This document shows, piece by piece, positions 4,923 to 27,548 of a stretch of 34,578 bases of DNA. How positions within the stretch are numbered: position 1 is the first letter of the stretch; every line of letters starts with the position of its first letter. Location: UHGV virus genome UHGV-0107442. One strand, given 5' to 3'. The translations under genes and the position numbers were made by a program. The notes beneath the pieces were generated by a model. It did not search any database, was not told the origin of the DNA, and worked only from the letters and a program-made list of their open reading frames with translations. The DNA is from a virus.

Positions 4923-5776
4923 GCACCATCCTGAAATGGGCGGGAAATAAAACCGCCATAATGTCCGAACTGAAAAAGCATCTTCCTGCTGGCCCGCGAC
5001 TGGTTGAACCTTTCGCGGGTTCCTGTGCAGTGATGATGGAGACGGATTACCCCAGCTATCTTGTTGCGGATATTAATCCTGATTTAATCAACCTCTATAA
5101 AAAGGTTGCTGCTGATTGTGAGGCGTTTATATCTCGTGCCAGAGCTTTATTTGAGGAAGCAAACAGGGAGGTGGCTTATTACAACATAAGGCAGGAGTTT
5201 AATTACTCCACTGAAATTACTGATTTCATGAAAGCGGTATATTTTCTGTATCTCAATCGTCATGGTTACCGTGGGTTATGTCGCTATAACAAGAGCGGGT
5301 ATTTCAACATTCCCTACGGTAATTATAAAAATCCGTATTTCCCTGAAAAAGAAATTCGCGCATTTGCAGAGAAAGCCCAGCGGGCAACGTTTATCTGCGC
5401 CAGCTTTGATGAAACGCTGGCGATGTTGAAGGCGGGGGATGTGGTGTATTGCGATCCGCCGTATGACGGTACGTTTTCCGGCTATCACACTGATGGTTTC
5501 ACTGAAGATGACCAGTATCACCTGGCATCCGTTCTTGAACATCGGTCATCAGAAGGACATCCGGTCATTGTTTCTAACAGTGACACATCCCTGATCCGTT
5601 CGCTGTATCGCAATTTTACTCACCACTACATCAAGGCAAAACGCAGCATCGGTGTGGCAGCTGGTGATAGTAAATCTGCAACAGAAATCATTGCTGTTTC
5701 CGGGGCGCGCTGCTGGGTGGGATTTGATCCTTCGCGTGGCGTAGATAGTTCTGCTGTGTACGAGGTGCGTGTATGA
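4919..5776 (+). CDS. Dam-type DNA adenine methyltransferase (GATC-class N6-MTase), orphan
   Basis: ORF 4859..5776 begins with TTG; ATG at 4919 follows GGAGG at 8-nt spacing. Has the DPPY catalytic motif (VYCDPPY) and an N-terminal AdoMet region (ILKWAGNK...EPFAGSCAV). No adjacent restriction endonuclease gene. Confidence 0.85.
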
Positions 5777-8166
5777 GTCATGACGATATGAGCAACTCTA
5801 GCGGCTTTAACGAGGCCGCTGCATCATTTTCATGGAACGGCCCGAAAAAGGCCATTAACCCTTATCTGGACCCGGCGGAATTTGCGCCGGAGTCTGCACT
5901 TTCAAACCTGATCACTCTGTATGCTGCCGATAACGAGCAGGAACAACTGCGCCGCGAGGCACTGAGTGAGCAGGTCTGGGAGCGTTATTTCTTTAATGAA
6001 TCCCGTGATCCTGTCCAGCGCGAAATGGAGCAGGATAAGCTCATTAGCCGGGCAAAGCTGGCGCATGAGCAGCAGCGTTTTAATCCAGACATGGTCATTC
6101 TGGCTGACGTCAACGCCCAGCCTTCCCATATCAGCAAGCCGCTGATGCAACGTATTGAATACTTCAGCAGTCTGGGCAGGCCAAAGGCTTATTCCCGCTA
6201 TTTGCGTGAGACGATTAAGCCATGTCTGGAAAGACTGGAGCATGTACGCGACAGTCAGCTATCCACTTCTTTTCGCTTTATGGCAAGCCATGAAGGGCTG
6301 GACGGCCTGCTGATCCTGCCTGAAATGAGTCAGGATCAGGTAAAACGCCTGTCCACCCTGGTAGCAGCGCATATGAGCATGTGTCTTGAGGTCGCTTGTG
6401 GTGATTTGTATGCCACCGATGACGTTAAGCCAGAAGAAATCCGCAAGACATGGGAAAAGGTGGCGGCGGAAACCCTGCGACTGGATGTCATACCGCCTGC
6501 GTTTGAGCAACTCCGCAGGAAAAGAAACCGCCGTAAACCCGTGCCCTATGAACTTATTCCGGGTTCGCTGGCGCGTATGTTGTGCGCCGACTGGTGGTAT
6601 CGGAAATTATGGAAGATGCGTAGCGAATGGCGGGAAGAGCAGTTGCGTGCTGTTTGCCTGGTCAGCAAAAAAGCATCTCCCTATGTCAGCTATGAAGCCG
6701 TGATGCATAAACGTGAGCAGCGCCGTAAGTCGCTGGAGTTTTTCCGTTCTCATGAACTGGTGAACGAAGACGGCGACACGCTGGATATGGAAGACGTGGT
6801 AAACGCCAGCAGCAGCAACCCTGCGCATCGCCGCAATGAGATGATGGCCTGTGTTAAAGGTCTGGAGCTTATCGCGGAAATGCGCGGTGACTGCGCCGTT
6901 TTCTACACCATCACCTGTCCGTCACGTTTCCATTCCACGCTAAATAACGGCAGGCCAAACCCGACCTGGACCAACGCGACAGTAAGACAAAGCAGCGATT
7001 ATCTGGTCGGCATGTTTGCTGCATTTCGTAAGGCTATGCACAAAGCCGGGTTGCGCTGGTATGGCGTGCGGGTGGCTGAGCCGCATCATGACGGCACAGT
7101 TCACTGGCACCTGTTGTGTTTCATGCGCAAAAAAGACCGCCGCGCCATTACTGCATTGTTGCGTAAGTTTGCCATCCGTGAAGACCGCGAGGAGCTGGGC
7201 AATAACACGGGGCCACGCTTTAAGTCTGAGCTGATAAACCCGCGCAAAGGAACGCCGACAAGCTACATTGCGAAATATATCAGTAAGAATATTGACGGGC
7301 GTGGTCTGGCTGGCGAGATCAGTAAGGAAACGGGTAAATCCCTGCGTGATAACGCTGAATACGTTAATGCCTGGGCGTCTCTGCATCGTGTTCAGCAATT
7401 CCGCTTCTTTGGCATTCCGGGGCGTCAGGCTTACCGTGAACTGCGATTGCTGGCTGGTCAGGCGGCAAGGCAACAGGGGGACAAAAAAGCAGGTGCGCCG
7501 GTACTGGATAACCCGCGCCTTGATGCAATCCTGGCTGCTGCTGATGCTGGTTGTTTTGCCACTTACATCATGAAGCAGGGCGGCGTACTGGTTCCCCGCA
7601 AATATCACCTCATCAGAACTGCTTATGAAATTAACGAAGAGCCGACCGCCTATGGCGATCACGGCATTCGTATTTATGGCATCTGGTCACCCATTGCAGA
7701 GGGCAAGATCTGCACTCATGCAGTGAAGTGGAAAATGGTTCGTAAAGCCGTTGACGTTCAGGAGGCGGTAGCCGACCAGGGCGCTTGCGCCCCTTGGACT
7801 CGTGGCAATAACTGTCCCCCTGTTGAAAATATGAACAAATCAGGGGGGGATTTACCCGATATTAAAACCATGGATGAGAAGGAGCTGCAGGAATATCTCC
7901 ACAACATGGGCCAGAAGGAACGGCGGGAGCTGACAGCCAGGTTGAGACTGGTAAAACCGAAGCGAAAAAAAGCATACATACAGAGTATTTCGGAGCAGCA
8001 GCGCCTGCAGCTTGAGGCAGAACTGACTGCCAGAGGGTTTGAGGGTAGTGTATCTGAGATTGATTTGCTTCTGCGTGGCGGCAGCATTCCATCCGGTGCC
8101 GGTTTACGTATTTTTTACCGTAAACAGAGGCTGCAGGAAGATGACAAATGGCGTCGATGGTACTAA
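5773..8166 (+). CDS. A: Rolling-circle replication initiation protein (P2 gpA family)
   Basis: 797 aa; size and position match P2 A (761 aa). Contains the region [13 protein letters not shown] (HUH-like) and downstream YIAKYISK with candidate catalytic tyrosines. Start overlaps the Dam stop. Confidence 0.9.
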
Positions 8167-8235
8167 GGATGCTGTTTAACATTTCGTGCTTTATTGACTG
8201 GAGTCAGTACATCCAATTGACTGACAAAAAAGAGT

Positions 8236-8278
8236 TTTACATTTTTTCTTTCCTACTATACTGTTTGTAAAAACAGTG
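8236..8278 (+). promoter_or_regulatory. SOS-regulated promoter: -35 TTTACA / -10 TATACT overlapping a LexA box
   Basis: TACTGTTTGTAAAAACAGTG (8259..8278) matches the LexA consensus TACTGT-N8-ACAGTA in the CTGT-N8-ACAG core. -35 at 8236..8241 and -10 at 8257..8262 (15-bp spacer, suboptimal). Lies 47 bp upstream of the ATG at 8325. Confidence 0.55.
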
Positions 8279-8324
8279 GGTATATGTACAGTATTTGTGT
8301 ATCCGTGTAATGATAGGAGGGAAG

Positions 8325-8513
8325 ATGCAGGACTATCTTTTGGAGTCATTGAAGCTCCAGCGTATTGATTTTTTTATCAAGCTTGTAGCGGCTAGTGAGT
8401 GCAGCGACGAAGAAAAGCGGCTGGCTATCCAGTGGGTGTCCGAACTGACAGATGAGTTGATGGCGAAAATTCGCAGCCATGAATACAGCCGATCAATGGA
8501 CGTTACCAGTTAA
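8325..8513 (+). CDS. Small SOS-box-controlled protein (62 aa); candidate Tum-like antirepressor module
   Basis: ATG 8325 follows AGGAGGG. Function inferred only from context: 186 places its LexA-controlled antirepressor tum in the equivalent position. Confidence 0.45.
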   Translation: MQDYLLESLKLQRIDFFIKLVAASECSDEEKRLAIQWVSELTDELMAKIRSHEYSRSMDVTS

Positions 8514-8525
8514 AGGGAAATCTGT

Positions 8526-8747
8526 ATGCGCATTGAAATAATGATCGATAAAGAGCAGAAGATTAGCCAGGCCACACTGGAAGCCCTTGAATCCGAGCTC
8601 TACCGTAATTTGCGCCCTCTGTATCCCAAAACAGCAATTCGTATCCGTAAGGGCAGCGCCAATGGTGTTGAACTGAGCGGGTTAAAACTGGATGAAGACA
8701 AAAAGCGAGTAATGGAAATAATGCAGCAGGTTACATTAAAACGTTGA
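8526..8747 (+). CDS. DinI-family protein
   Basis: 73 aa; the MRIEIMI start and overall pattern resemble E. coli DinI (MRIEVTI...). SD AGGGAA upstream; downstream of the LexA box. Confidence 0.8.
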   Translation: MRIEIMIDKEQKISQATLEALESELYRNLRPLYPKTAIRIRKGSANGVELSGLKLDEDKKRVMEIMQQVTLKR

Positions 8748-8937: not shown

Positions 8938-8982
8938 CTAGCTAATCCTGAATGTGGGTTAGTGGAAATTACAAGGAAATAT

Positions 8983-10164
8983 ATGAAACTGACTGAGCTA
9001 ACTATAAACGGTATCGGGGGGATAAAGTCCCTGTACGTAAAATTTAGGCCTGACATGAATATTATATGTGGGCCTAACGGAGTTGGAAAATCCACACTCT
9101 TGCTTGCTGCCTCCTTTCCTTTTCTTCATGGATACACTAATAGAATAAAACGCAATGTCACTTCTGAAACAGGAAGTGTTAGTCTAATAATAGAAGATAA
9201 TTCTGTTAACTTTAATTCAGTATTAGATGTTAACGTTCATTTGCCTACAGAAACAATTCACAACTTTAATAATAACGGATTTGATAAGAGGAAACTAATA
9301 AAATTTGAAATATTACGTAACTTTGATTATAAACATCTTGAGGCGTTGAATGCAGATAAATCACTATCCGATGATGCTGTTTCGCAACAGATTAATTTAG
9401 GTGTCAATTTACATGATATCAAGGATTGGTTTGCTAAGAGGGATTTGTTTGAAAAAGTAGATAATGGTTACGGTCCTAATACGATAAAAAATATACATCT
9501 TGCAAGGGAGTGTATATCAATTTTAAACCCTCAGTTTTCTTACAATCGCGTCGATCCTAAATCTTACGATATTTTTGTAAATACCCCGACCGGGGTAATA
9601 TGGTATGAATATCTGTCCTCGGGATTCAAATCATGTATGAGTCTCCTTCTCGGTATTATTAAAGAGATCGAGCTTCGTTATCCGGAGAAAGATATTTACG
9701 CCCAAGAATTTGATGGAGTGATTCTTATCGATGAAATTGAGCTTCATTTGCATCCTGAGTGGCAGGCAAGAATCACTGAAGCCCTTACGACAACATTTCC
9801 ATCAGCACAATTTATTGTCACAACTCACAGCCCACATGTAGTACAGAATGCAAAACCACATCAGATCATTGCGTTAGTACCAGATAATGATGGCACAGTG
9901 AGAGTAAAAGAACTTCCTGAAAATGGCTTGGGTTATTCTGCCTGGACAGTTGAAGAGGTTTTGTTAGATGTAATGGGGATGGAAAGCACTCTCAGTAGAA
10001 AACTACAAGAACTACTTGATAATTTCGAACGTTTTGTTGATGAAGAAAATTTCGACAAGGCGAAAGAAATTTATGATTATTTGGATATGGCATTGCATCA
10101 AAACAGTATTCTTCGTAAATCTCTTAAAATAAGCCTGATGTCAATTCGAGAGAGAGAAGAGTAA
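8983..10164 (+). CDS. ABC/SMC-like P-loop ATPase, Septu PtuA-like
   Basis: ORF 8962..10164 begins with GTG; ATG at 8983 follows AGGAA. Walker A GPNGVGKST, Walker B VILIDEIELHLHP, then TTHSP. 393 aa; the stop abuts the start of the HNH gene. About 33% GC versus about 52% in the phage backbone. Confidence 0.8.
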   Translation: MKLTELTINGIGGIKSLYVKFRPDMNIICGPNGVGKSTLLLAASFPFLHGYTNRIKRNVTSETGSVSLIIEDNSVNFNSVLDVNVHLPTETIHNFNNNGFDKRKLIKFEILRNFDYKHLEALNADKSLSDDAVSQQINLGVNLHDIKDWFAKRDLFEKVDNGYGPNTIKNIHLARECISILNPQFSYNRVDPKSYDIFVNTPTGVIWYEYLSSGFKSCMSLLLGIIKEIELRYPEKDIYAQEFDGVILIDEIELHLHPEWQARITEALTTTFPSAQFIVTTHSPHVVQNAKPHQIIALVPDNDGTVRVKELPENGLGYSAWTVEEVLLDVMGMESTLSRKLQELLDNFERFVDEENFDKAKEIYDYLDMALHQNSILRKSLKISLMSIREREE

Positions 10165-10165
10165 A

Positions 10166-10912
10166 ATGATTAAGCTTGAACGGAACTTTATTCCTGATTT
10201 TTTTACTCGTGTTGATCTTCTATCTTTAACTCAGGAGTTTAAAGATAATGGAACATCTGTTTGGCATCATCCGGAAGTAAAATCGGCATGTCTAAAATTA
10301 AGTAATGGCAAATGTGCATTTTGTGAGGTCAAGCTTGAAGAGGCTAGCACCTATAATGAAATTGAGCATTTTAAGGATAAAAAAAATTTCCCTGATGATG
10401 TTATTAGATGGGAAAATCTCCTTCCTTCATGCCGTCACTGTAATGGTTCAAAACAACGCCATAATGTTGTACTCAATCCTATAATAAATCCATGCAACGA
10501 TTTACCGTCAGAACACCTTTATATGATAGGGTATCGTATTAAAGGTAAAACTGATTTAGGTAAAACAACAGTGGATGTTTTAAACTTTAATCACAGGGAG
10601 CACAAGTTTATACCGCGTTGTAAAGCAGGGGAACTTATAGATAGCAGTATTGATGACGCAATAGAAAAACTTAATTGGTTTAATGAGAATCCAAGTACTA
10701 GACGTAAAAACATTCTTATGAATCTAGTCGAGGCAATATTAGGTGAGTGTCAGAAAACATCTCCCTTTTCTGCAGTATCAGCAACAATGCTTCATCGTTC
10801 AGTCGAATATTCTTATCTGAAAGAAACCATGCAGATGCAAGGATTATGGTCAGATTATATGCAGGAACTTCATGATGAATCTTTGAGCCTGACGTTACCG
10901 TCAATTCGCTAG
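10166..10912 (+). CDS. HNH endonuclease, Septu PtuB-like
   Basis: 248 aa with CAFCE...EIEHFKDKKNFPDDVIRWENLLPSCRHCNGSK (CxxC...H...N...CxxC HNH core). ATG 10166 is 1 nt after the ATPase stop. Confidence 0.8.
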   Translation: MIKLERNFIPDFFTRVDLLSLTQEFKDNGTSVWHHPEVKSACLKLSNGKCAFCEVKLEEASTYNEIEHFKDKKNFPDDVIRWENLLPSCRHCNGSKQRHNVVLNPIINPCNDLPSEHLYMIGYRIKGKTDLGKTTVDVLNFNHREHKFIPRCKAGELIDSSIDDAIEKLNWFNENPSTRRKNILMNLVEAILGECQKTSPFSAVSATMLHRSVEYSYLKETMQMQGLWSDYMQELHDESLSLTLPSIR

Positions 10913-10938
10913 TTAATACAGTTTTGCCCATAAAAGCT

Positions 10939-10974
10939 AAACGTTCAGATATTCTTGGCTGAACGTTTGATTTT
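10939..10974 (+). terminator. Rho-independent terminator after the HNH gene
   Basis: Stem AAACGTTCAG (10939..10948), 10-nt loop, CTGAACGTTT (10959..10968), followed by GATTTTAT. Confidence 0.6.
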
Positions 10975-11257
10975 ATGAAGACGATAAGCAGATTGGGCCC
11001 GAGTGAGTATCTCGGGAAAATAAACCATTTACATACTATGTTTAACGTTCAAAGCACACCTCAAGCTTTCTTAGTTCTTCTGCTTCGATATATAAACGGT
11101 CATTTGGTTACGAACATTCACTTCTCCCCTAAGTGCATGGCTATGCTGCATGAGATCGCATGACCGTTTGAGGAGCGTTGTAACGCAGGCGTGCCAGTTG
11201 TGACGGACTTTTTCGTATGTTATGCACCTGCATGAAAACCATTGCACAAAGCGGGCA

Positions 11258-11284
11258 GGCGTGGCGGGGATACGAGCGCGCGCT
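11258..11284. other. cos-like sequence (P2/186-type cohesive-end site)
   Basis: GGCGTGGCGGGGA at 11258..11270 matches the first 13 nt of the 186 cohesive end (GGCGTGGCGGGGAAAGCAT as remembered) and 12 of 13 of P2. The following GCGCGCT also resembles sequence next to P2 cos. The last 6 nt of the 19-mer differ, so this is not certain. Confidence 0.45.
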
Positions 11285-11378
11285 AACTCATAAATCCTAG
11301 ATTATTAGTGGATTTATCTCATTGAAATGTGCACTATTCCCAGCATTGAGTTGTACCAGATGTCTTTATGGAGGGACT

Positions 11379-13145
11379 GTGGCTTTTGTAACTGATATTC
11401 GGCTTGAAGATAATGCTATTGCTGCACCTGCGACAGCACAGGTTATGGCTCAGAGGCTAGGATCTGTATTACGTAAGAGATATGAAGAATTCATCCATAA
11501 AAGAGAGTGTGCACCAGGCCAAGCAGACTATGATGTAAAAATGGCTAGCAGGGCTTTAGCTGCATTCACTATGTATCAGTTAGGATGTGTGGATGATAAG
11601 TATGCAGGGGAGTCTGTATGTGATAGTAGTGAAGATGGTGGTATAGATGGAATAGCAATCAACCATAACGAAAAAATCGTTGTTGTTGTTCAATCAAAAT
11701 TTCACCAATCGGGAAACGGCACTTGGACAAGAGCCGATTTTATGTGTTTTAAGGATGCTTGTGAGAAGCTACAAAGTGAAAGATACGAATTATTTGATTC
11801 CATATTGCAAAATAAAAGCGGGGAAATAAGTGCGGCTTTAAGTAGTTTTGAATACAAGTTCATCTTTGCGATGGCGCATACAGGTAAAAAAGGTGCTGCA
11901 GAGGAAATATTAAATGATATGCGGGAATGGCAATATCAATTAAACGCTGCAGCTTTTACACCTGAGGATGAGCCTAAAGAGAACTGGGGATTTCAGGTTC
12001 ATTTAATATCCTCTGAAGATATGATGCATTGGTTACAGAATGGCTCTCGAAATCAAATTGATCTTAACAGGGTTGAAATTGAGCGTTTTGGATTTTTGAA
12101 TGAACCATATCAAGCTTTTTACGGGGCTATTAGTGGTGATCAAGTTGCAGAATGGTGGGAAGAGCATGGTGCTCGATTATTTACAAAAAACATAAGGAAT
12201 ATGCTTGGTAAAACAGAAGTGAATGAGGAAATAAAAAAGACAGCTATAGATAATCCTGATATGTTTTGGTTTTATAATAATGGGATTACTGTACTGGTTA
12301 AGGAGGTTGTTCCTCATAGACGAAACGCAGCTCCTAATATAGAGAGAGGGATTTTTGATTTTCGTGATGTAAGTGTCATTAATGGTGCACAAACAGTCAG
12401 TAGTATTGGCGCATGTAAAGATGCGCTTGGTGAAAACATATATAGACTCAAAGTGCCAGCCAGATTCATTGTTATAGATGATGATACTGATAATTTAACT
12501 GCAAATGCGATTACAAAAGCTAACAATTTCCAAAATAGAGTATTGGGAAGAGATTTTGCGTCGCAGCAGGCAGATCAACATAGATTGGCAAGGGAGTTAG
12601 TGCTTGAAGGATATCAATATCAGTTACTAAGAACAGATGAAGATCATTCACAGACAAATACGAAAGTCATTGACTTGGATGAGGCGCTCAATGCACTCGC
12701 ATGTTTAAGTAAAAATAATACGGTTGTATCGACACTAAAATCAAATCGCGGTAGGTTTTTTGAAAATTTTGAAGGCTCTCTATATAAAACTATTTTCAAT
12801 CCAAGATTAAGTGGTTTAAAACTTATCAATACTGTTCTACATTTTAGAGTTATAGATAAGTTGATCGGTAAAACATTACTATCAGTAGATAAAACTACCC
12901 ATAGTCGCAAGCATTTAATTATTACGCATGGTAATAGATACTATGCGTCTGTGCTATTGAGCAACGTTTCTGGGATACATAATAGCTCAGAAATTCTTGT
13001 TCCAGATGAAAAAAATCTTTCAGAAGAATTAAGTGCATTAATTCAACGTGCTGAAGAGTACATTGAAGATAATTACCCGAATGCCTATCCGGCAAGATTT
13101 TTTGCAAATCCAACGAAAATACAAGAGTTATACGATAATGTTTAA
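11379..13145 (+). CDS. AIPR-family (abortive-infection phage-resistance) protein with an N-terminal PD-(D/E)xK-like nuclease motif
   Basis: ORF 11322..13145 begins with TTG. Start uncertain: GTG 11379 (GGAGGG 3 nt upstream) or ATG 11445. N-terminal DSSEDGGIDGIAI...VVVVQSKF resembles Mrr/restriction-endonuclease-like D...QxK. Central WFYNNGITVLV...VINGAQT matches the AIPR hallmark as remembered. AT-rich. Confidence 0.7.
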   Translation: MAFVTDIRLEDNAIAAPATAQVMAQRLGSVLRKRYEEFIHKRECAPGQADYDVKMASRALAAFTMYQLGCVDDKYAGESVCDSSEDGGIDGIAINHNEKIVVVVQSKFHQSGNGTWTRADFMCFKDACEKLQSERYELFDSILQNKSGEISAALSSFEYKFIFAMAHTGKKGAAEEILNDMREWQYQLNAAAFTPEDEPKENWGFQVHLISSEDMMHWLQNGSRNQIDLNRVEIERFGFLNEPYQAFYGAISGDQVAEWWEEHGARLFTKNIRNMLGKTEVNEEIKKTAIDNPDMFWFYNNGITVLVKEVVPHRRNAAPNIERGIFDFRDVSVINGAQTVSSIGACKDALGENIYRLKVPARFIVIDDDTDNLTANAITKANNFQNRVLGRDFASQQADQHRLARELVLEGYQYQLLRTDEDHSQTNTKVIDLDEALNALACLSKNNTVVSTLKSNRGRFFENFEGSLYKTIFNPRLSGLKLINTVLHFRVIDKLIGKTLLSVDKTTHSRKHLIITHGNRYYASVLLSNVSGIHNSSEILVPDEKNLSEELSALIQRAEEYIEDNYPNAYPARFFANPTKIQELYDNV

Positions 13146-13149
13146 ACTA

Positions 13150-13173
13150 AAGGGAGGTTGCCTCCCTTTTTTT
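13150..13173. terminator. Bidirectional terminator between the convergent AIPR and portal genes
   Basis: AAGGGAGG-TTG-CCTCCCTT hairpin (13150..13168) running into a T-run through 13173, with an A-rich stretch on the other side. It fills almost all of the 30-bp gap between the two stops. Confidence 0.65.
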
Positions 13174-13175
13174 AA

Positions 13176-14201
13176 TTAGAAATGGTATTCTTGGAATTCA
13201 ATAACACCTTCTTTTATGAAATTGTTTATTTCTTGTAATCTTTTTTGCAATGGCAATAATTCATTACGTACAAATACTTTACTCGCCTTCTCTACATCTC
13301 CAAAGCCCCCAACATTATTAGGCATTATCCCCATCATTTGCGGTGGCACACGATGCGCCGCCATCATGTCATCCCGGCTCACGTTCTTGATGTTTAGAAA
13401 CTCATCCTTCGCCGCCACTTCTGACAACGGGATAATCTGAAGTCCGTCCTTTTTCCCGTTAGGCGAGTACATAAACAGGTTGCGGAAGTTACCTGGTCCT
13501 TTGGCGCTTTTCATCGCATTGCGGAGGTTGTTCACATCCTCCTGGTTTTGCGCGGCATCGGTCATGTACATGATGAAGCCTGCATGACTGCCGTTAATGT
13601 AATACTTTCGGCGGAACAGCGTGGCGGACTCGTTGAGCAGGGCTGACGGAATGGCAGAAAGGTAACCTGGCAGGCCGTAGATCTCCTGGTTGATGTCCGG
13701 TTCCATCAGATGAAAGATGCTTCCTTTCGTGAACTGATATGGCTGCGTGGTCATACCGTATTGCACAAACCAGTAGGTATCCAGGTCTAACCCGCGTCGG
13801 GTGTATTTTGCCAGGGCAGGTTCAAGGGCGATAACTTCACCGAAGCGGTTAGTGCGTTTCTCCAGGTAGGCGTTACCAAAAACCAGATAGTCCTGCACAA
13901 AACGTGAAAAAGCCTGCTGGCTGAGCAGCGGGTGAGGGATATAGGTGCTGGACAGAATGTTGCACTTTACTGCAATCGGGGAGCTGTGATGTACGGCAGC
14001 GCGGAAGGTTCGCGCCAGCCCGTCGAAACTCACTGGTGGCTCATACCAGCGGTCCATCTGTACGCATTCCACATAGTCCAGTAATTCGCGGCGGTCCAGA
14101 ACAGGAACGGGATCACCGAAGCTGAATGCTTCGGCTGAAGTTTGGTTTTTATGCTGGATCTGGTTCGTCGCCGCAGCGCGGTTTTTCTTACTCTTTCCCA
14201 T
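13176..14201 (-). CDS. Q: Portal protein (P2 gpQ family)
   Basis: 341 aa from ATG 14201 (-); the track's 14204 start is TTG. Size and position match P2 Q; the start overlaps the P stop (ATGA). Confidence 0.9.
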   Translation of the reverse strand: MGKSKKNRAAATNQIQHKNQTSAEAFSFGDPVPVLDRRELLDYVECVQMDRWYEPPVSFDGLARTFRAAVHHSSPIAVKCNILSSTYIPHPLLSQQAFSRFVQDYLVFGNAYLEKRTNRFGEVIALEPALAKYTRRGLDLDTYWFVQYGMTTQPYQFTKGSIFHLMEPDINQEIYGLPGYLSAIPSALLNESATLFRRKYYINGSHAGFIMYMTDAAQNQEDVNNLRNAMKSAKGPGNFRNLFMYSPNGKKDGLQIIPLSEVAAKDEFLNIKNVSRDDMMAAHRVPPQMMGIMPNNVGGFGDVEKASKVFVRNELLPLQKRLQEINNFIKEGVIEFQEYHF

Positions 14202-15967
14202 CAAAAAATCTCCACAATATTGCTGGTATTGGCGGACTCGCCCTGCAGCGGTTCGTTAAACAGTGCGTGCATTGTTGCCCAGGCCAGATCGGCATGGCTG
14301 GCTTCTTCGCTGCGGCTGGCTTCATAGGTTGGGCGGTTGCCGCTGGCGGTGGTGGCGCGACGGATTGCCATAAATGACTGCGCTATGTCGGTGTGTCCGG
14401 CGTCAAACTCCAGACGACGGTGACTGATAATGTCGTAGGCCTTGAGTACCAGGGCGTTTTTAACGTTGGGGTTGTAGACAAACTCCCGGACGGCTGGAAA
14501 AAACGCTTTCACGTTCTCGTAAACCCCGTGGCCGACACCTGTCGAGTCGATGCCGATGTAGGTCACGTTGTACTGTTCGGTCAGTTTTTTGATGGCGTCA
14601 GCCTGGGCGCGAAAGTCCATTCCGCGCCACTGGTGACGCTCAAGAATGCGGAACTTGCCGCCCGGTACGGTTGGCGGAGCCACCACCACGCATCCGGCGC
14701 TGTCGCCATTCTGCGTACCTTTCGCCGGGTCATAACCGATCCATACTTCGCGCCAGCCAAACGGGCGCAGGGCCAGTGCATGAAAGTCAGTCCAGACTTC
14801 CCAGCTGTCTACCATGCACGCCTGCAGCTCGCTGAGCGGGAACACGGACGCGAGATCGTCCACAAACTCGCACATCAGCAGGTTCTGGTATTCGTCCGGG
14901 CTGTACTCCATGCGCAACTGGTCAAGGTCGAACAGGTTACAGCCGCCGCGCACCGCATCTTCCACGGTGACTATCTGGCGGTATTGCCCGTCTGCGCACA
15001 GCAGGCCGGGGGCCAGATTGCTGTGGGACAGGTCGATGTCCACCTTATCGGCTTTGTTGCGCCCACGGTTGAACAGCGCACCGGACCAGAACGGATAAGC
15101 ACTGTGGGTCAGGCTGGATGGTGTGGAAAAATAGGTCTGCCGCCATTTCTTGTGAATAGCCATACCGGAAGCCACTTTGCGTAGCTCCTGAAATTTCGGT
15201 ATCCAGAAATATTCATCCAGATACAGGTTGCCGTGATAACTCTGAGCCGTGCGGGCATTGGTGCCGAGGAAGTAAAGCGTGGCCCCGTTAGGAAGCACCA
15301 TCGGATCGCCTTTCAGTTCCACATCCACTTCTTTGGCGAAGTCGATGATGTACTGCTTAAAGACGTGGGCCTGTGCCTTACTGGCGGAAAGAAAAATCTG
15401 GTTACGTCCGGTAAGCAGGGCGTCAATCAGGGCTTCACGGGCAAAGTAAAAGGTCGCGCCGATCTGGCGTGACTTCAGCAGGTTGCGGATGCGGTTGGTT
15501 TTTCCGACTTCCCACCAGTGGCGCTGGTAGTTGAACATGGAGGAATGGAAGATTTCTTCCAGCTTCTCAATCTGTTCATCGGTGAAGACATTCTTTTCCG
15601 GCTGACGGCGCGGGCCTTTGTTGCGGTTGGCGACGTTAGGGTTTAAGTCAGCTTCGTTGCCGCCATTGTTAAACTTGCCGATCCGCGCGTGGCGCTCCGA
15701 CTGGCGCGCCAGCAGGTCAATCTCTTTGAAATCTTTCCCTTCTTTGTGCTCCTTCATGATGAGCTGGCAGTAGCGTGCGGCGGTGGTGAGCTGCATCTGA
15801 TCCAGCGGCCCATAGTCACCCCACTTGTCGCGTTTTTTCCAGCTGTGAACGGTTGCAACTTTCTCGCCCAGCATTTCAGCAATGCGGGCTACGCGGTATC
15901 CCTGAAAGTACAGCAGCATGGCCTGCCGACGGGGATCGAGATCTGCGGGTGTCAGTGTGGTGTTCAT
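14201..15967 (-). CDS. P: Terminase large (ATPase) subunit (P2 gpP family)
   Basis: 588 aa; the P-then-Q leftward operon is characteristic of P2-like phages. ATG at 15967 (-). Confidence 0.9.
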   Translation of the reverse strand: MNTTLTPADLDPRRQAMLLYFQGYRVARIAEMLGEKVATVHSWKKRDKWGDYGPLDQMQLTTAARYCQLIMKEHKEGKDFKEIDLLARQSERHARIGKFNNGGNEADLNPNVANRNKGPRRQPEKNVFTDEQIEKLEEIFHSSMFNYQRHWWEVGKTNRIRNLLKSRQIGATFYFAREALIDALLTGRNQIFLSASKAQAHVFKQYIIDFAKEVDVELKGDPMVLPNGATLYFLGTNARTAQSYHGNLYLDEYFWIPKFQELRKVASGMAIHKKWRQTYFSTPSSLTHSAYPFWSGALFNRGRNKADKVDIDLSHSNLAPGLLCADGQYRQIVTVEDAVRGGCNLFDLDQLRMEYSPDEYQNLLMCEFVDDLASVFPLSELQACMVDSWEVWTDFHALALRPFGWREVWIGYDPAKGTQNGDSAGCVVVAPPTVPGGKFRILERHQWRGMDFRAQADAIKKLTEQYNVTYIGIDSTGVGHGVYENVKAFFPAVREFVYNPNVKNALVLKAYDIISHRRLEFDAGHTDIAQSFMAIRRATTASGNRPTYEASRSEEASHADLAWATMHALFNEPLQGESANTSNIVEIF

Positions 15968-23815: not shown

Positions 23816-24413
23816 TCTGCTGCCACCGGGTTCAACACCACTGGAGCGCCGACTGGCGCAAACCTGCAGCGGGATTTCTGATCTGCAGGTGCCGCTTCGT
23901 GACTTGTGGAATCCGGCAACCTGTCCGGTCAGTTTCCTGCCTTATCTCGCCTGGGCGTTCTCTGTGGATCGCTGGGACGAGGGCTGGACAGAAAGCGTCA
24001 AGCGCCAGGTGGTGAAGGATGCTTTTTATATTCATCAGCATAAAGGGACCACCAGTGCCGTGCGGCGGGTGGTGGAGCCGTTCGGATTCCTGATCCGCAT
24101 TATTGAGTGGTGGCAGACCGGAGAAACACCGGGCACGTTTCGCCTGGATATCGGCGTGCAGGACCAGGGCATCACTGAAGATACCTATCTGGAACTTGAG
24201 CGACTGATAAGCGATGCCAAACCATGTAGCCGCCACATGATCGGCATGTCCATCAATCTGCAGACCAGCGGCCCGCATTGGGTGGGAGCCGCCAGCTATC
24301 TTGGCGAAGAAATCACGATCTATCCGTATATCAACGAAACGATTATTTCCGGTGGCACCGCGCATGAAGGCGGGGCGGTCCATGTTATTGACACAATGAG
24401 AGTGAATCCATGA
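23808..24413 (+). CDS. I: Baseplate / tail protein (P2 gpI family)
   Basis: 201 aa; overlaps both neighbours. Confidence 0.85.
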   Translation: MNSLLPPGSTPLERRLAQTCSGISDLQVPLRDLWNPATCPVSFLPYLAWAFSVDRWDEGWTESVKRQVVKDAFYIHQHKGTTSAVRRVVEPFGFLIRIIEWWQTGETPGTFRLDIGVQDQGITEDTYLELERLISDAKPCSRHMIGMSINLQTSGPHWVGAASYLGEEITIYPYINETIISGGTAHEGGAVHVIDTMRVNP

Positions 24414-25801
24414 GCACAAAATTTTATACCCTGCTGACGGATATTGGCGCGGCGAAACTTGCCAGCGCCGCCGCGCTCGGTGTGCCGCTAAAAATTACCC
24501 ATATGGCGGTGGGCGATGGCGGTGGAGTATTGCCAACGCCGGACGCAAAGCAGACGGCACTGGTAAATGAGAAACGCCGGGCTGCGCTGAATATGCTTTA
24601 TATCGACCCGCAGAACAGCAGCCAGATTATTGCCGAACAGGTGATCCCTGAAAACGAGGGCGGTTGGTGGATACGTGAAGTGGGCTTGTTTGATGAGTCC
24701 GGGGCATTGATTGCCGTGGGCAACTGCCCGGAAAGCTATAAGCCGCAACTGGCTGAAGGTAGCGGGCGCACTCAGACCGTGCGCATGGTGCTGATTACCA
24801 GCAGCACGGACAATATCACCCTGAAAATCGACCCTGCTGTAGTGCTGGCAACCCGCAAGTATGTGGATGACAAGGCACTGGAGCTGAAGGTGTACGCGGA
24901 TGATCAGATGGCAAAACATCTTGCCGCACCGGACCCGCATTCACAGTACGCGCCAAAAGCCAGCCCGACATTTACCGGAACCCCCAAAGCGCCAACGCCA
25001 GCGGCGGGGAATAATACCACGCAGGTTGCGACCACTGCGTTTGTACAGGCGGCACTGACGGCCCTTATTAATGGTGCGCCAGCCACGCTGGACACGCTGA
25101 AAGAAATAGCCGCAGCCATTAACAATGATCCGAATTTCAGTACCACCATTAACAATGCGCTGGCACTAAAAGCACCGTTGTCGAGTCCGGCACTCACCGG
25201 AACGCCAACAGCCCCCACGGCGGCGCAGTCGATCAACAATACACAGATTGCCACTACGGCTTTTGTGAAATCGGCGATTGCAGGAATGGTGGGTTCTGCA
25301 CCTGCTGCACTGGATACACTGAACGAACTGGCGGCGGCACTGGGGAATGATCCGAACTTTGCCACGACAATGCTTAATGCGCTGGCAGGTAAACAACCGC
25401 TGGACAATACGCTTACCAATTTGAGTGGAAAGGATGTAGCTGGTCTTCTCACATACCTTGGTTTGGGAGAAGCCAGATATGTCATTCAGCGAGGAGCTAA
25501 TGTCAATGGTGCATGGATACGCTGGTCAGATGGTGCAATAGAAGTATTTGGAACTGGTGGTTCCAATGATAATGGGCTGGCTAAAGTCGTTTATCCAATT
25601 GCACTACCTAAGCTTTCACGTTTTATCAGCATAGCGGAAAGAATAAGAACAGATTACGAGGCCACACCTAATAACGTTCACGTTTCAATGATCGTGGATG
25701 ACCAGGTCAGTAATACAGGTTTTTATGTCCGCTGCCAGATGTACGACGGAAGACCATCAACAAGTGCTTTTTCCTGGAGAGTTTATTGTGCGCCTGTTTA
25801 A
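24410..25801 (+). CDS. H: Tail fibre protein (P2 gpH-like constant N-terminal region plus variable C-terminus in the current orientation)
   Basis: 463 aa. Two tandem copies of a roughly 70-aa repeat (...TGTPKAPTPAAGNNTTQVATTAFVQAAL...DTLKEIAAAINNDPNF... and ...TGTPTAPTAAQSINNTQIATTAFVKSAI...DTLNELAAALGNDPNF...). The inversion crossover site lies inside the gene at 25458..25478 (encodes GLGEAR). Confidence 0.85.
   Translation: MSTKFYTLLTDIGAAKLASAAALGVPLKITHMAVGDGGGVLPTPDAKQTALVNEKRRAALNMLYIDPQNSSQIIAEQVIPENEGGWWIREVGLFDESGALIAVGNCPESYKPQLAEGSGRTQTVRMVLITSSTDNITLKIDPAVVLATRKYVDDKALELKVYADDQMAKHLAAPDPHSQYAPKASPTFTGTPKAPTPAAGNNTTQVATTAFVQAALTALINGAPATLDTLKEIAAAINNDPNFSTTINNALALKAPLSSPALTGTPTAPTAAQSINNTQIATTAFVKSAIAGMVGSAPAALDTLNELAAALGNDPNFATTMLNALAGKQPLDNTLTNLSGKDVAGLLTYLGLGEARYVIQRGANVNGAWIRWSDGAIEVFGTGGSNDNGLAKVVYPIALPKLSRFISIAERIRTDYEATPNNVHVSMIVDDQVSNTGFYVRCQMYDGRPSTSAFSWRVYCAPV
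25458..25478 (+). repeat. Left inversion crossover site, inside H
   Basis: Identical to the reverse complement of 26894..26914. Confidence 0.7.
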
Positions 25802-25985
25802 TCCTGTTACTTTGACTGAAGTAATCCCCGGTCTTCATGACGTGACCGGGGCTGTGGAATTACCAGAAGATAACTGGTTTTTTACTGCATCTGAAATCCC
25901 TGAAGGAATGGAAATATCTGTTAACGAGAAGGGCGAACCCATTCTGATTGAGATTAAACCATATCAGGTGGAACTGGCCAGATAA
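25788..25985 (+). CDS. Small ORF after the active fibre C-terminus; putative tail-fibre assembly/chaperone protein (65 aa)
   Basis: GTG 25788 follows GGAGA at 7-nt spacing and overlaps the H stop. Function assigned by position (equivalent to U of Mu-type invertible segments); no motif recognised. Confidence 0.4.
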   Translation: MRLFNPVTLTEVIPGLHDVTGAVELPEDNWFFTASEIPEGMEISVNEKGEPILIEIKPYQVELAR

Positions 25986-26220
25986 CCCCCGGCGCGGTGC
26001 TGGTATCTGCTTCCATCACCGCGTCGATATTACCAACATCATATTCAGTCATTTCCGGTTCCGGTGGTGCTATAAACTCTCCGTCAGAATAGAACCAACC
26101 GACGCCTGCATCTATATGATCAATATTTATAATTTCGCAGTTAGAGAATAAATCACCCTCTCCATCCCAGATAATAATATTTTTCACCACGCCATGTTCA
26201 ATCAGAGCAAAATTACTCAT
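25954..26220 (-). CDS. Small ORF of the alternative cassette; putative tail-fibre assembly/chaperone protein (88 aa)
   Basis: ATG at 26220 (-) overlaps the stop of the alternative fibre C-terminus (ATGA). Convergent with the ORF at 25788..25985, as expected for an invertible segment. Confidence 0.5.
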   Translation of the reverse strand: MSNFALIEHGVVKNIIIWDGEGDLFSNCEIINIDHIDAGVGWFYSDGEFIAPPEPEMTEYDVGNIDAVMEADTSTAPGVIWPVPPDMV

Positions 26221-26954
26221 CAGGCATACTCCTCAACAATAACTATTCCCGGGGCACCGTCACCTCCCGATTGAGCCTCACTTCCAGCAGGTGCGCAGGC
26301 TCCGCCTCCGCCAGAACCAAAGCCCTCAGCTTTACCACCACCACGTCCGCTGAATGATGAAGAACTTGCACCACCTATACCGCCTGAACCTAATGGTGTA
26401 TCCCCCCCGTTACCCCCTGCTACAGCTTTAACAGAGATAACCATTGCTCCTGGTGTTTTTGCACTACAGCGAAATGCTCTTAGTACAGTACCGGACGATG
26501 TCGGACTGGCACCCCGTGAAATACCCTGAATATATGATGTGTTTGCAGATGCTCCCCCCGCGCCACCGCCTGTACCACCAGGTGCAGTTATCATGGAACC
26601 GAAATAAGTTGTGCCACCTTCACTACCTGAATTTCTTCCGGCTCCCCCCCCTTTACCTGCAGCACCGATAATAACGTTGACTTCGAAATCATTATCAACC
26701 TCGAAAAATGCTTCAATAAATGCGCCGCTCAATCCAGCTCCGGCTGTTGCCTGCTGATTTTCTGTTGTTTCAGGAACCCCACCGCCGCCGCCACCGCCAC
26801 CAGAGGCAATGACCCTTATCTTTTTTGTCCCTGGTGTTGGGATATATTTTCCAGAGCTTTTAAAAATATTCGTGTTTAACAAACGACCAGAGAATCTGGC
26901 TTCTCCCAAACCAACGTTTAAGAAAATGCAGAGGTAACAGCTAACTGGCATCAT
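26220..26954 (-). CDS. Alternative, glycine-rich tail-fibre C-terminal cassette (silent in this orientation)
   Basis: The minus-strand ORF encodes VGLGEARF at the crossover site (26894..26914), in frame with the same GLGEAR encoded in H. Inversion would fuse about 230 aa of Gly-rich sequence (runs such as GGGGGGGG, GGTGGGAGG) to the H constant part. The first 14 codons before the crossover are probably not part of any real protein. Confidence 0.65.
   Translation of the reverse strand: MMPVSCYLCIFLNVGLGEARFSGRLLNTNIFKSSGKYIPTPGTKKIRVIASGGGGGGGGVPETTENQQATAGAGLSGAFIEAFFEVDNDFEVNVIIGAAGKGGGAGRNSGSEGGTTYFGSMITAPGGTGGGAGGASANTSYIQGISRGASPTSSGTVLRAFRCSAKTPGAMVISVKAVAGGNGGDTPLGSGGIGGASSSSFSGRGGGKAEGFGSGGGGACAPAGSEAQSGGDGAPGIVIVEEYA
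26901..26926. repeat. Right inversion crossover site (gix/hix/cix-like)
   Basis: TTCTCCCAAACC-AA-CGTTTAAGAAAA: two 12-bp half-sites around a 2-bp core, resembling remembered hix/gix sites (for example TTCTTGAAAACC-AA-GGTTTTTGATAA). Confidence 0.6.
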
Positions 26955-26981
26955 CTCCGGTTTTTATTCAGGGGGATGATC

Positions 26982-27548
26982 ATGCTTATTGGCTATGTAC
27001 GCGTGTCAACAAATGACCAGAACACCGATTTGCAACGTAATGCACTGAATTGCGCGGGATGTGAGCAGATTTTTGAGGACAAAATCAGTGGCACTAAGTC
27101 CGACAGACCGGGGCTGAAAAAACTACTCAGGACACTATCGGCAGGAGACACGCTGGTTGTCTGGAAGCTGGACAGGTTGGGGCGCAGTATGCGGCATCTT
27201 GTTACGCTGATAGAAGAGTTGCGCCAGCGTGGTGTGAATTTCGGAAGCCTGACTGACAGTATTGATACCAGTACCCCAATGGGCCGTTTCTTTTTTCATG
27301 TCATGGGTGCCCTGGCTGAAATGGAACGCGAACTGATAGTTGAACGTACCAGGGCAGGGCTGGCTGCAGCTCGTGCCAAAGGCAGAGTAGGTGGACGCCG
27401 TCCTAAGTTGACCACCGAACAGTGGGCACAGATTGGGCGTTTACTCGAGGCCGGAGAATCAAGACAGCGTATTGCACTGATTTTTGATGTAGGCGTTTCT
27501 ACCATTTATAGAAAATTTCCGGCAAATAAGATCAATGAATCCCCCTGA
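26982..27548 (+). CDS. Serine recombinase, DNA invertase (Hin/Gin/Cin/Pin family)
   Basis: MLIGYVRVSTNDQNTDLQ... with the catalytic-serine motif (VRVSTNDQ) and a C-terminal HTH. ATG 26982 follows AGGGGG; an alternative ATG at 26976 is in frame. Confidence 0.85.
   Translation: MLIGYVRVSTNDQNTDLQRNALNCAGCEQIFEDKISGTKSDRPGLKKLLRTLSAGDTLVVWKLDRLGRSMRHLVTLIEELRQRGVNFGSLTDSIDTSTPMGRFFFHVMGALAEMERELIVERTRAGLAAARAKGRVGGRRPKLTTEQWAQIGRLLEAGESRQRIALIFDVGVSTIYRKFPANKINESP

Follow-up and report, generated by a model that had tools for sequence, protein, structure and literature searches.

A candidate AbiU-type (AIPR) defence gene beside cos in a P2-like Escherichia coli prophage

The stretch of DNA analysed here, the whole 34,578 nucleotides (nt) of UHGV virus genome UHGV-0107442 (hereafter the window), is a P2-like prophage of Escherichia coli in which a single gene of the AIPR/AbiU family lies between the cos site and the portal gene. 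The gene encodes an intact protein of 588 amino acids (aa) with a fixed three-part architecture, composed of a nuclease-like N-terminal domain, the AIPR domain and a helical C-terminal part, and it is probably a single-protein AbiU-type candidate for anti-phage defence, carried as a moron in the cos-proximal hotspot of the prophage. Both the gene and its position are already known, through the RefSeq annotation, the named Pfam, PHROG and PADLOC families and a published hotspot that lists the exact protein. The residual value of the locus is that it offers a compact, intact E. coli AbiU/AIPR member in a natural single-gene cassette, with D82, D86, D90, Q105 and K107, as well as N335 and Q338, as candidate key residues; the remaining question of mechanism concerns the AIPR/AbiU family, rather than this locus.

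Family membership and gene structure

On the basis of profile searches, the protein belongs to the AIPR/AbiU family. It matches the Pfam AIPR profile (PF10592) with 121.5 bits, against a cut-off of 25 (E = 7.3e-35), over profile positions 1-305 of 308, and the same profile is matched by all 25 aligned homologues. The PADLOC AbiU profile (PDLC02357) is matched at near full length (positions 45-512 of 537; 86 bits, E = 7.4e-25), whilst phrog_1841, annotated in PHROG as 'Abi alpha-like abortive infection mechanism' and placed in the moron category, is matched with an E value of 7e-173. The original prediction, made from the sequence alone, had recognised a stand-alone AIPR-family protein and proposed a hidden Markov model (HMM) search against PF10592 as a check; these matches bear it out, the cassette containing a gene of the AbiU profile and no co-oriented partner gene.

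The core of the protein was also found to match MzaE, both in PADLOC (E = 1.5e-13, core only) and in NCBIfam, where the match covers only aa 248-396 (E = 5e-16). The AIPR core is therefore common to the two proteins, but membership of the Mza system was rejected: the NCBIfam match has 58 bits, far from the equivalog cut-off of 1050, and the neighbours of the window gene are Septu, cos and the portal gene, not MzaABCD.

When 1.84 billion cluster representatives were searched exhaustively, 4,026 relatives were retrieved at E ≤ 1e-3, of which 425 reach E ≤ 1e-30. Among the matches listed, more than 100 are aligned over their full length, with 27-41% identity and lengths of 550-590 aa; hence the three-part architecture is old and fixed.

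The protein is RefSeq entry WP_021542068, labelled 'AIPR family protein' by PGAP with the same 588 aa and the same coordinates. The mechanical open reading frame (ORF) extends from a TTG at 11322 to 13145, and the start had at first been considered ambiguous between this codon, a GTG at 11379 and an ATG at 11445. An alignment with 24 homologues (52-87% identity, mostly 588-609 aa long), drawn from Enterobacteriaceae, Aeromonas, Vibrio, Shewanella, Pseudomonas and cyanobacteria, settles the matter in favour of the GTG, as all 24 begin with MAFV, MALV or MPIV opposite it; a GGAGG Shine-Dalgarno sequence also precedes this codon, and the other two starts were dropped. The frame is not truncated and retains all residues that are invariant in the family. 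A repeat search of the region returned nothing meaningful, and Rfam a single sub-threshold match: this lies within the AIPR ORF (12981-13061, + strand), corresponds to the Lacto-phage-1 RNA with 23.8 bits against a gathering threshold of 50 (E = 0.26), and is most likely due to chance.

A nuclease-like N-terminal domain

The N-terminal domain is predicted to have the alpha/beta fold of restriction endonucleases, with acidic residues and a (D/E/Q)xK motif on adjacent strands, as expected of the PD-(D/E)xK superfamily. The closest structural neighbours of the model are FokI (score 9.3), AspBHI (9.0), MspJI (8.2) and AF1548 (7.6), followed by N.BspD6I (7.2), LlaBIII (6.5), HamA (5.9) and Avs4 (5.8). 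The DGGIDGI...VVVQSKF motif, picked out earlier from the translation, sits on the model as would be anticipated for a nuclease fold: D90 is found just before the strand formed by residues 91-95, and the strand formed by residues 100-107 ends in Q105-S-K107. In 82 representatives with 24-40% identity, D82, D86, G88 and D90 never vary, Q105 and K107 are retained in at least 90%, and the same D...QxK motif is present in the AIPR proteins of a P4-like satellite and of phage RE-2010. Hence the model and the alignment both indicate a PD-(D/E)xK fold with a family-wide D...D...D/QxK site.

However, the third catalytic position (the middle residue of the catalytic triad) is a Gln, not an Asp or Glu, a variant that is presumably of the Mrr type. 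Membership of the Pfam family Mrr_cat (PF04471) was rejected, the match having 13.7 bits against a cut-off of 21 (E = 0.068), and only two of the 25 homologues match this profile at E ≤ 1. It is because of these two points that nuclease activity of the predicted domain is considered plausible, and not put more strongly. Of the earlier description of an 'Mrr/PD-(D/E)xK-like' N terminus, the fold and motif are therefore retained and the Pfam assignment is not; likewise, of the two checks suggested for it, structure prediction gives a nuclease fold whereas the Mrr_cat profile falls below its threshold. AIPR proteins with a HEPN four-helix domain and an Rx4-6H motif at the N terminus have been described (PMC3506569); the structural neighbours of the window protein lend no support to a HEPN N terminus.

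The AIPR core

The AIPR domain contains the motifs KNIRN, FWFYNNGIT, INGAQT and ANNFQNRVLGRDF; residues N271, R273, N300, N301, G302, N335, G336, Q338, N383, Q385 and N386 are invariant across the 82 representatives. A search for structural neighbours of this domain returned nothing significant, PDB sequence searches, whether started from the single protein or from two profiles, yielded no solved AIPR relative, and no biochemical study of AIPR/AbiU proteins was met in the literature searched.

One lead as to the nature of this domain involves COG1479, which we take to be the same as DUF262. Makarova et al. (PMC3632139) described AbiU1/AIPR/COG1479 as a domain of the ParB superfamily, often fused to other nucleases, and the N terminus of DndB has been placed in the same family (PMC3632139; PMC3506569). 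Three profile-profile comparisons, in which increasingly diverse AIPR alignments were set against a 41-sequence GmrSD_N alignment, all returned probabilities of 0.4-0.6%, with VINGAQT aligned to VDGQQR in one of the three. A DUF262/ParB-like core in which NGAQT replaces DGQQR is thus unsupported, all probabilities being below 1%, and stays a literature lead only. It is conceivable, though doubtful, that the core (NxR, NNGIT, NGAQT, NxQN) represents an unrecognised or extremely diverged ParB-like module that senses a ligand or nucleic acid and switches on an Mrr/FokI-type nuclease; if so, the family, which has thousands of members, would follow a sensor-effector logic that is new.

Proposed function

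Among the closest known systems is lactococcal AbiU (AbiUi/AbiU1; Dai et al. 2001), likewise a single AIPR-family protein of around 590 aa, the N-terminal domain of which is predicted to be FokI-like, as in the window protein (2026 review, PMC13064643). The likeness of the two is at the level of the HMM only (the 86-bit PADLOC match), with the matched part of the profile spanning the nuclease motif region. AbiUi alone confers phage resistance in Lactococcus and delays phage transcription (PMC13064643). Ten defence types, one of them a Vibrio AbiU-type system, have been selected for experimental validation in an engineered Vibrio host; that the phage protein Surt counteracts this AbiU-type system has been validated (bioRxiv 10.1101/2024.06.14.598830).

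We infer a defence activity for the window protein that might proceed as follows. The lysogen would express the AIPR protein; when another phage infects, a phage cue would be sensed by the AIPR domain together with the helical C-terminal part, and this would license the N-terminal nuclease to cut nucleic acid, such that early phage gene expression would be blocked. Such a block would match the delay of phage transcription brought about by lactococcal AbiU. The outcome may be death of the cell, as in true abortive infection, or damage to the phage DNA alone.

Several points weigh against this reading. That the AIPR domain acts as a sensor is purely conjectural, with neither the structural neighbour search nor the comparison with GmrSD_N lending it support; the Gln at the third catalytic position and the sub-threshold Mrr_cat score both bear on the nuclease; and a promoter scan found no sigma-70-like promoter between cos and the GTG start. 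Furthermore, lactococcal AbiU lowers plaquing efficiency by only 10- to 100-fold (PMC13064643), and the AIPR gene of a P4-like satellite (pFR77), the sole E. coli AIPR to have been cloned and challenged with phages (eight coliphages), is not among the seven systems validated by Rousset et al. (PMC9122126).

The structural neighbours also raise the alternative that the protein is a direct restriction enzyme, type IV-like or sensing some feature of DNA, in which the AIPR domain and C-terminal part would read the modification or structure of incoming DNA and the N-terminal nuclease would cut it without killing the cell. The best neighbours after FokI are the nuclease domains of AspBHI and MspJI, which are modification-dependent; AIPR genes have been reported to be frequent in restriction-modification operons (PMC2292703; PMC3506569), AbiU1/AIPR has been grouped with COG1479, as described above (PMC3632139), and a GmrSD-type type IV enzyme occupies the same slot, on the same strand and in the same size class, in other E. 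coli. GmrSD, BrxU, SspE and DndI, which combine a ParB-like DUF262 NTPase with a nuclease, resemble the window protein in being single-chain, two-module defence nucleases of about 590 aa. However, profile and structure searches of the protein detected no SRA-like or other known modification-reading domain, nor was significant profile similarity to GmrSD_N found, and the action of lactococcal AbiU is weak on phages of three different groups, its reported effect being delayed phage transcription (PMC13064643). Direct restriction is the less likely reading, and AbiU-type defence is preferred.

Position in the P2-like hotspot

Over the stretch queried, the window is 100% identical to a prophage of E. 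coli strain GPEC389, where it adjoins rcdA/ybjJ. The order of genes is integrase, CI, replication endonuclease (gpA), a small hypothetical gene, DinI, ATPase, HNH, cos and AIPR, then the portal (gpQ) and terminase genes on the opposite strand; this order and the homology of cos confirm that the AIPR gene lies between cos and the portal gene, as first proposed. The surrounding DNA is AT-rich, as had also been noted, with a GC content of 35-42% over approximately 8.5-13.3 kb (0.35-0.42 over 11001-13000) against 54-60% (0.54-0.60) in the structural genes.

The cos-like sequence of the original prediction is real, on the strength of its homology to P2/P4 cos and of its spread: the conserved cos region is present at 81-87% identity (among the rows listed) in approximately 1,240 of 5,426 complete E. 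coli genomes and in P2-like phages of Klebsiella, Salmonella and Yersinia. Positions 11253-11288 align with the P2/P4 cos core, the right end reading AAAGCGGGCAGGCGTGGCGGGGATACGAGCGCGCGC where P4/P2 have AAAGCGGGCGGGCGAGGCGGGGAAAGCACTGCGCG. The core itself, GGCGTGGCGGGGATACGAG (11262-11280), differs from P2 cosL, GGCGAGGCGGGGAAAGCAC, at five of 19 positions; hence an exact-pattern search for the P2 cohesive end allowing up to three mismatches gave no match, and the site was found by homology instead.

In P2, cosL (1-19) and Q (187-1221) have only the tQ terminator (160-181) intervening. The window hairpin between the convergent AIPR and portal genes has the same position relative to Q as tQ, just past the Q stop codon, and a terminator scan and folding give it -14.2 kcal/mol on the + strand and -13.5 kcal/mol on the - strand. 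It had been predicted to be bidirectional and shared with the portal gene; it stands as a + strand terminator in the position of tQ, but the T-run is found on the + strand and the - strand has none. A further hairpin, at ~10938-10968 after the HNH gene (-18.3 kcal/mol, z = -5.6), fits a terminator, and together with cos it separates the ATPase-HNH pair from the AIPR gene in the manner originally described.

The gpA-gpQ interval, which contains cos, is a published hotspot for defence genes in P2-like phages, with cargo including P2 Old and Tin (Rousset et al. 2022, PMC9122126). The AIPR gene lies within this interval, next to cos and in variable AT-rich DNA. Supplementary file 6 of that study (Table S5A in its main text) lists WP_021542068 at least 12 times and catalogues the same locus, with the exact five-gene arrangement WP_001154444 + WP_053887526 + WP_021542068 + WP_053887525 + WP_053887527 (PMC9122126).

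To survey the slot, 60 records were taken at even intervals from the ranked list of 1,274 E. coli matches to the cos-AIPR-portal query. Other annotated genes, amounting to 0.35-1.9 kb, separate the cos piece from the portal gene in 39 of the 60; cos lies directly beside the portal gene, as in P2, in two, is more than 2 kb away or elsewhere in 16, and is the sole region matched in a further two, the remaining record being the window's own locus. Occupants of the slot include a DUF262/GmrSD protein, DprA with a phosphoribosyltransferase, PIN, a KAP-type P-loop NTPase, TIGR02391, STAS-like, SieB, TIR and HIRAN proteins, and ParA with RelA/SpoT; the pair of DprA and phosphoribosyltransferase has been tied to phage defence by Rousset et al. 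(PMC9122126). In E. coli 63-2 (NZ_CP050040, locus coordinates 539-2320), the slot is filled by a GmrSD-type protein (GmrSD_N + GmrSD_C, 593 aa) encoded on the same strand as the AIPR gene and of nearly equal length, with no detectable sequence similarity to the AIPR protein.

AIPR genes themselves recur beside cos. Gene product 14 of the Salmonella Felsduovirus RE-2010 (NC_019488) occupies the identical slot in the identical orientation, with cos followed by AIPR (+) and portal (-), and retains the D...QxK and NNGIT/NGxQT motifs; however, it is only 23% identical to the window protein and 554 aa long, and is an independent acquisition of another AIPR subfamily. The window portal protein has 87% aa identity to that of RE-2010, with the C terminus still conserved at the protein level. 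The pFR77 protein of the P4-like satellite (WP_032211572, E. coli E1167) has 33% identity to the window protein over 400 aa, with the nuclease and AIPR motifs and the architecture in common, and is encoded by a single gene beside the P4 cos just as the window gene lies beside a P2-like cos, but it belongs to a different subfamily and is carried on a satellite. The position had originally been described as unusual for cargo; given the survey, the published hotspot and these two genes, it is in fact the rule rather than an oddity.

The recurrence of AIPR genes beside cos both in P2-like phages (the window and RE-2010) and in P4-like satellites (pFR77) could be read as a sign that they serve conflict between P2 and P4, or otherwise benefit the prophage, with satellite, helper or cos-containing DNA as the target; that the P4 AIPR failed to protect against eight unrelated coliphages (PMC9122126) would fit such a role. 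Nevertheless, homologues with 57-77% identity occur outside P2/P4 altogether, as a lone gene between housekeeping genes on a Pseudomonas chromosome and on an integrase-bearing island in Pectobacterium; the family is also present in cyanobacteria and Vibrio; and many unrelated defence genes are found in the slot, so the position is attributable to cassette exchange, not function. We therefore hold such a conflict role to be very improbable in comparison with defence of the AbiU type.

Exchange of the cassette

The AIPR gene travels in a compact cassette that extends from its leader through the coding sequence and the terminator hairpin into the last ~16 portal codons. Between ~11332 and 13331 the window is 99-100% identical to strain ARL09/232, whereas identity falls to 87% in the cos flank and to 92-93% in the portal gene. 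On the left, homology to other prophage backbones stops at 11284-11289; on the right, in two such backbones (L009, from E. coli 63-2, and L006), it resumes only at 13225-13243, within the last ~16-22 portal codons. The right-hand boundary hence falls inside the portal ORF, at 13179-13331 (- strand): the last ~16-50 codons of this ORF are rich in AT and move together with the AIPR gene, and the portal 3' end from 13179 to ~13225 forms part of the cassette.

On the other side of cos, towards gpA, the ATPase-HNH pair constitutes a complete type I Septu system, the proteins of which are WP_053887526 and WP_053887525. An AIPR protein identical to that of the window, where it is paired with Septu, is found with DarT and a macro-domain protein (DarTG-like) in strain E423, with a DUF2971 protein in ARL09/232 and, as listed in the table of Rousset et al. 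(PMC9122126), with a KAP NTPase. As the same protein is combined with Septu, DarTG, DUF2971 and KAP NTPase, the two sides of cos must exchange independently, and the separateness of the AIPR gene from the ATPase-HNH pair that was originally proposed is upheld. Judged from these sequence comparisons, recombination carries the cassette from one P2-like backbone to another without regard to Septu, and its boundaries fall within cos on one side and the portal 3' end on the other. Rousset et al. treat gpA-gpQ as one hotspot, whereas in the present comparisons each side of cos acts as a slot of its own; cos may therefore split the P2 hotspot into two independently exchanging slots, with right-hand cassettes carrying the portal 3' end and terminator as a recombination handle. 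The window is an example of how P2-like prophages accumulate two defence modules that are independent of each other, with Septu on one side of cos and an AbiU-like candidate on the other.

The cassette is rare: there are 12 near-identical copies among the 5,426 complete E. coli genomes, and 21 records in all that cover at least 80% of a longer query. In strain E423 (NZ_CM173464, locus coordinates 5730-8712) it is intact within a degraded prophage, in which the portal gene is truncated and the tail genes are fused or partial; an IS5 fragment is found upstream, beside the DarT/macro-domain pair. This rarity, the setting in E423 and the failure to find a recognisable promoter between cos and the start might all suggest a functionally inert or decaying passenger gene. 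Set against this are the full-length frame with all of the family-invariant residues intact, the identity of the protein across different prophage backbones, and the good Shine-Dalgarno sequence and terminator; a passenger is the least probable of the explanations considered here, and an AbiU-type defence gene remains the preferred one.

One homologue outside the phages has a neighbour of its own. In Pectobacterium carotovorum (CP088019), the 77%-identical AIPR gene is followed after 55 nt by a 305-aa ORF on the same strand (locus coordinates 9822-10739). This ORF has no Pfam match, and neither the window nor the Pseudomonas locus contains it; in some settings it may act as an optional partner.

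Table 1. Features of the AIPR locus and its surroundings, in window coordinates
Feature	Coordinates	Strand	Details
Type I Septu, complete, gpA side of cos: PtuA	8962-10164	+	PADLOC, E = 1e-151
Type I Septu, complete, gpA side of cos: PtuB/HNH	10166-10912	+	PADLOC, E = 2e-95
Conserved cos region	11132-11289		Shared with E. coli genomes; left boundary of variable cassette
Exchangeable cargo cassette	~11285-13225	+	Leader, AIPR gene, terminator hairpin and last ~16 portal codons
Shine-Dalgarno sequence GGAGG	11370-11374	+	4 nt before GTG 11379; read directly from the sequence
AIPR/AbiU-family gene	11379-13145	+	GTG start; 588 aa; WP_021542068
PD-(D/E)xK (FokI/MspJI/Mrr-like) nuclease domain, predicted	11613-12053	+	~aa 79-225; approximate boundaries, from the secondary structure of the model
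Putative active site, D82-x3-D86-G-G-I-D90...Q105-S-K107	11622-11699	+	Conservation in 82 representatives
AIPR domain (PF10592)	12180-13067	+	aa 268-563; Pfam match; helical C-terminal part follows
Terminator hairpin between convergent AIPR and portal genes	13149-13169	+	9-bp stem, loop TTG, T7 tail
Portal gene (gpQ homologue)	13176-14204	-	Right anchor of the slot; Pfam Phage_portal

Other features of the window

Downstream of the tail-fibre gene (24410-25801), a serine invertase is encoded at 26976-27548 on the + strand (Pfam Resolvase, E = 1e-52, plus HTH_7). It adjoins a glycine-rich ORF in the opposite orientation (26220-26954, - strand), which is probably an alternative C terminus for the tail fibre, and this part of the window has a lower GC content and a negative GC skew. 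The region as a whole (24410-27548) looks like a switch of tail-fibre host range.

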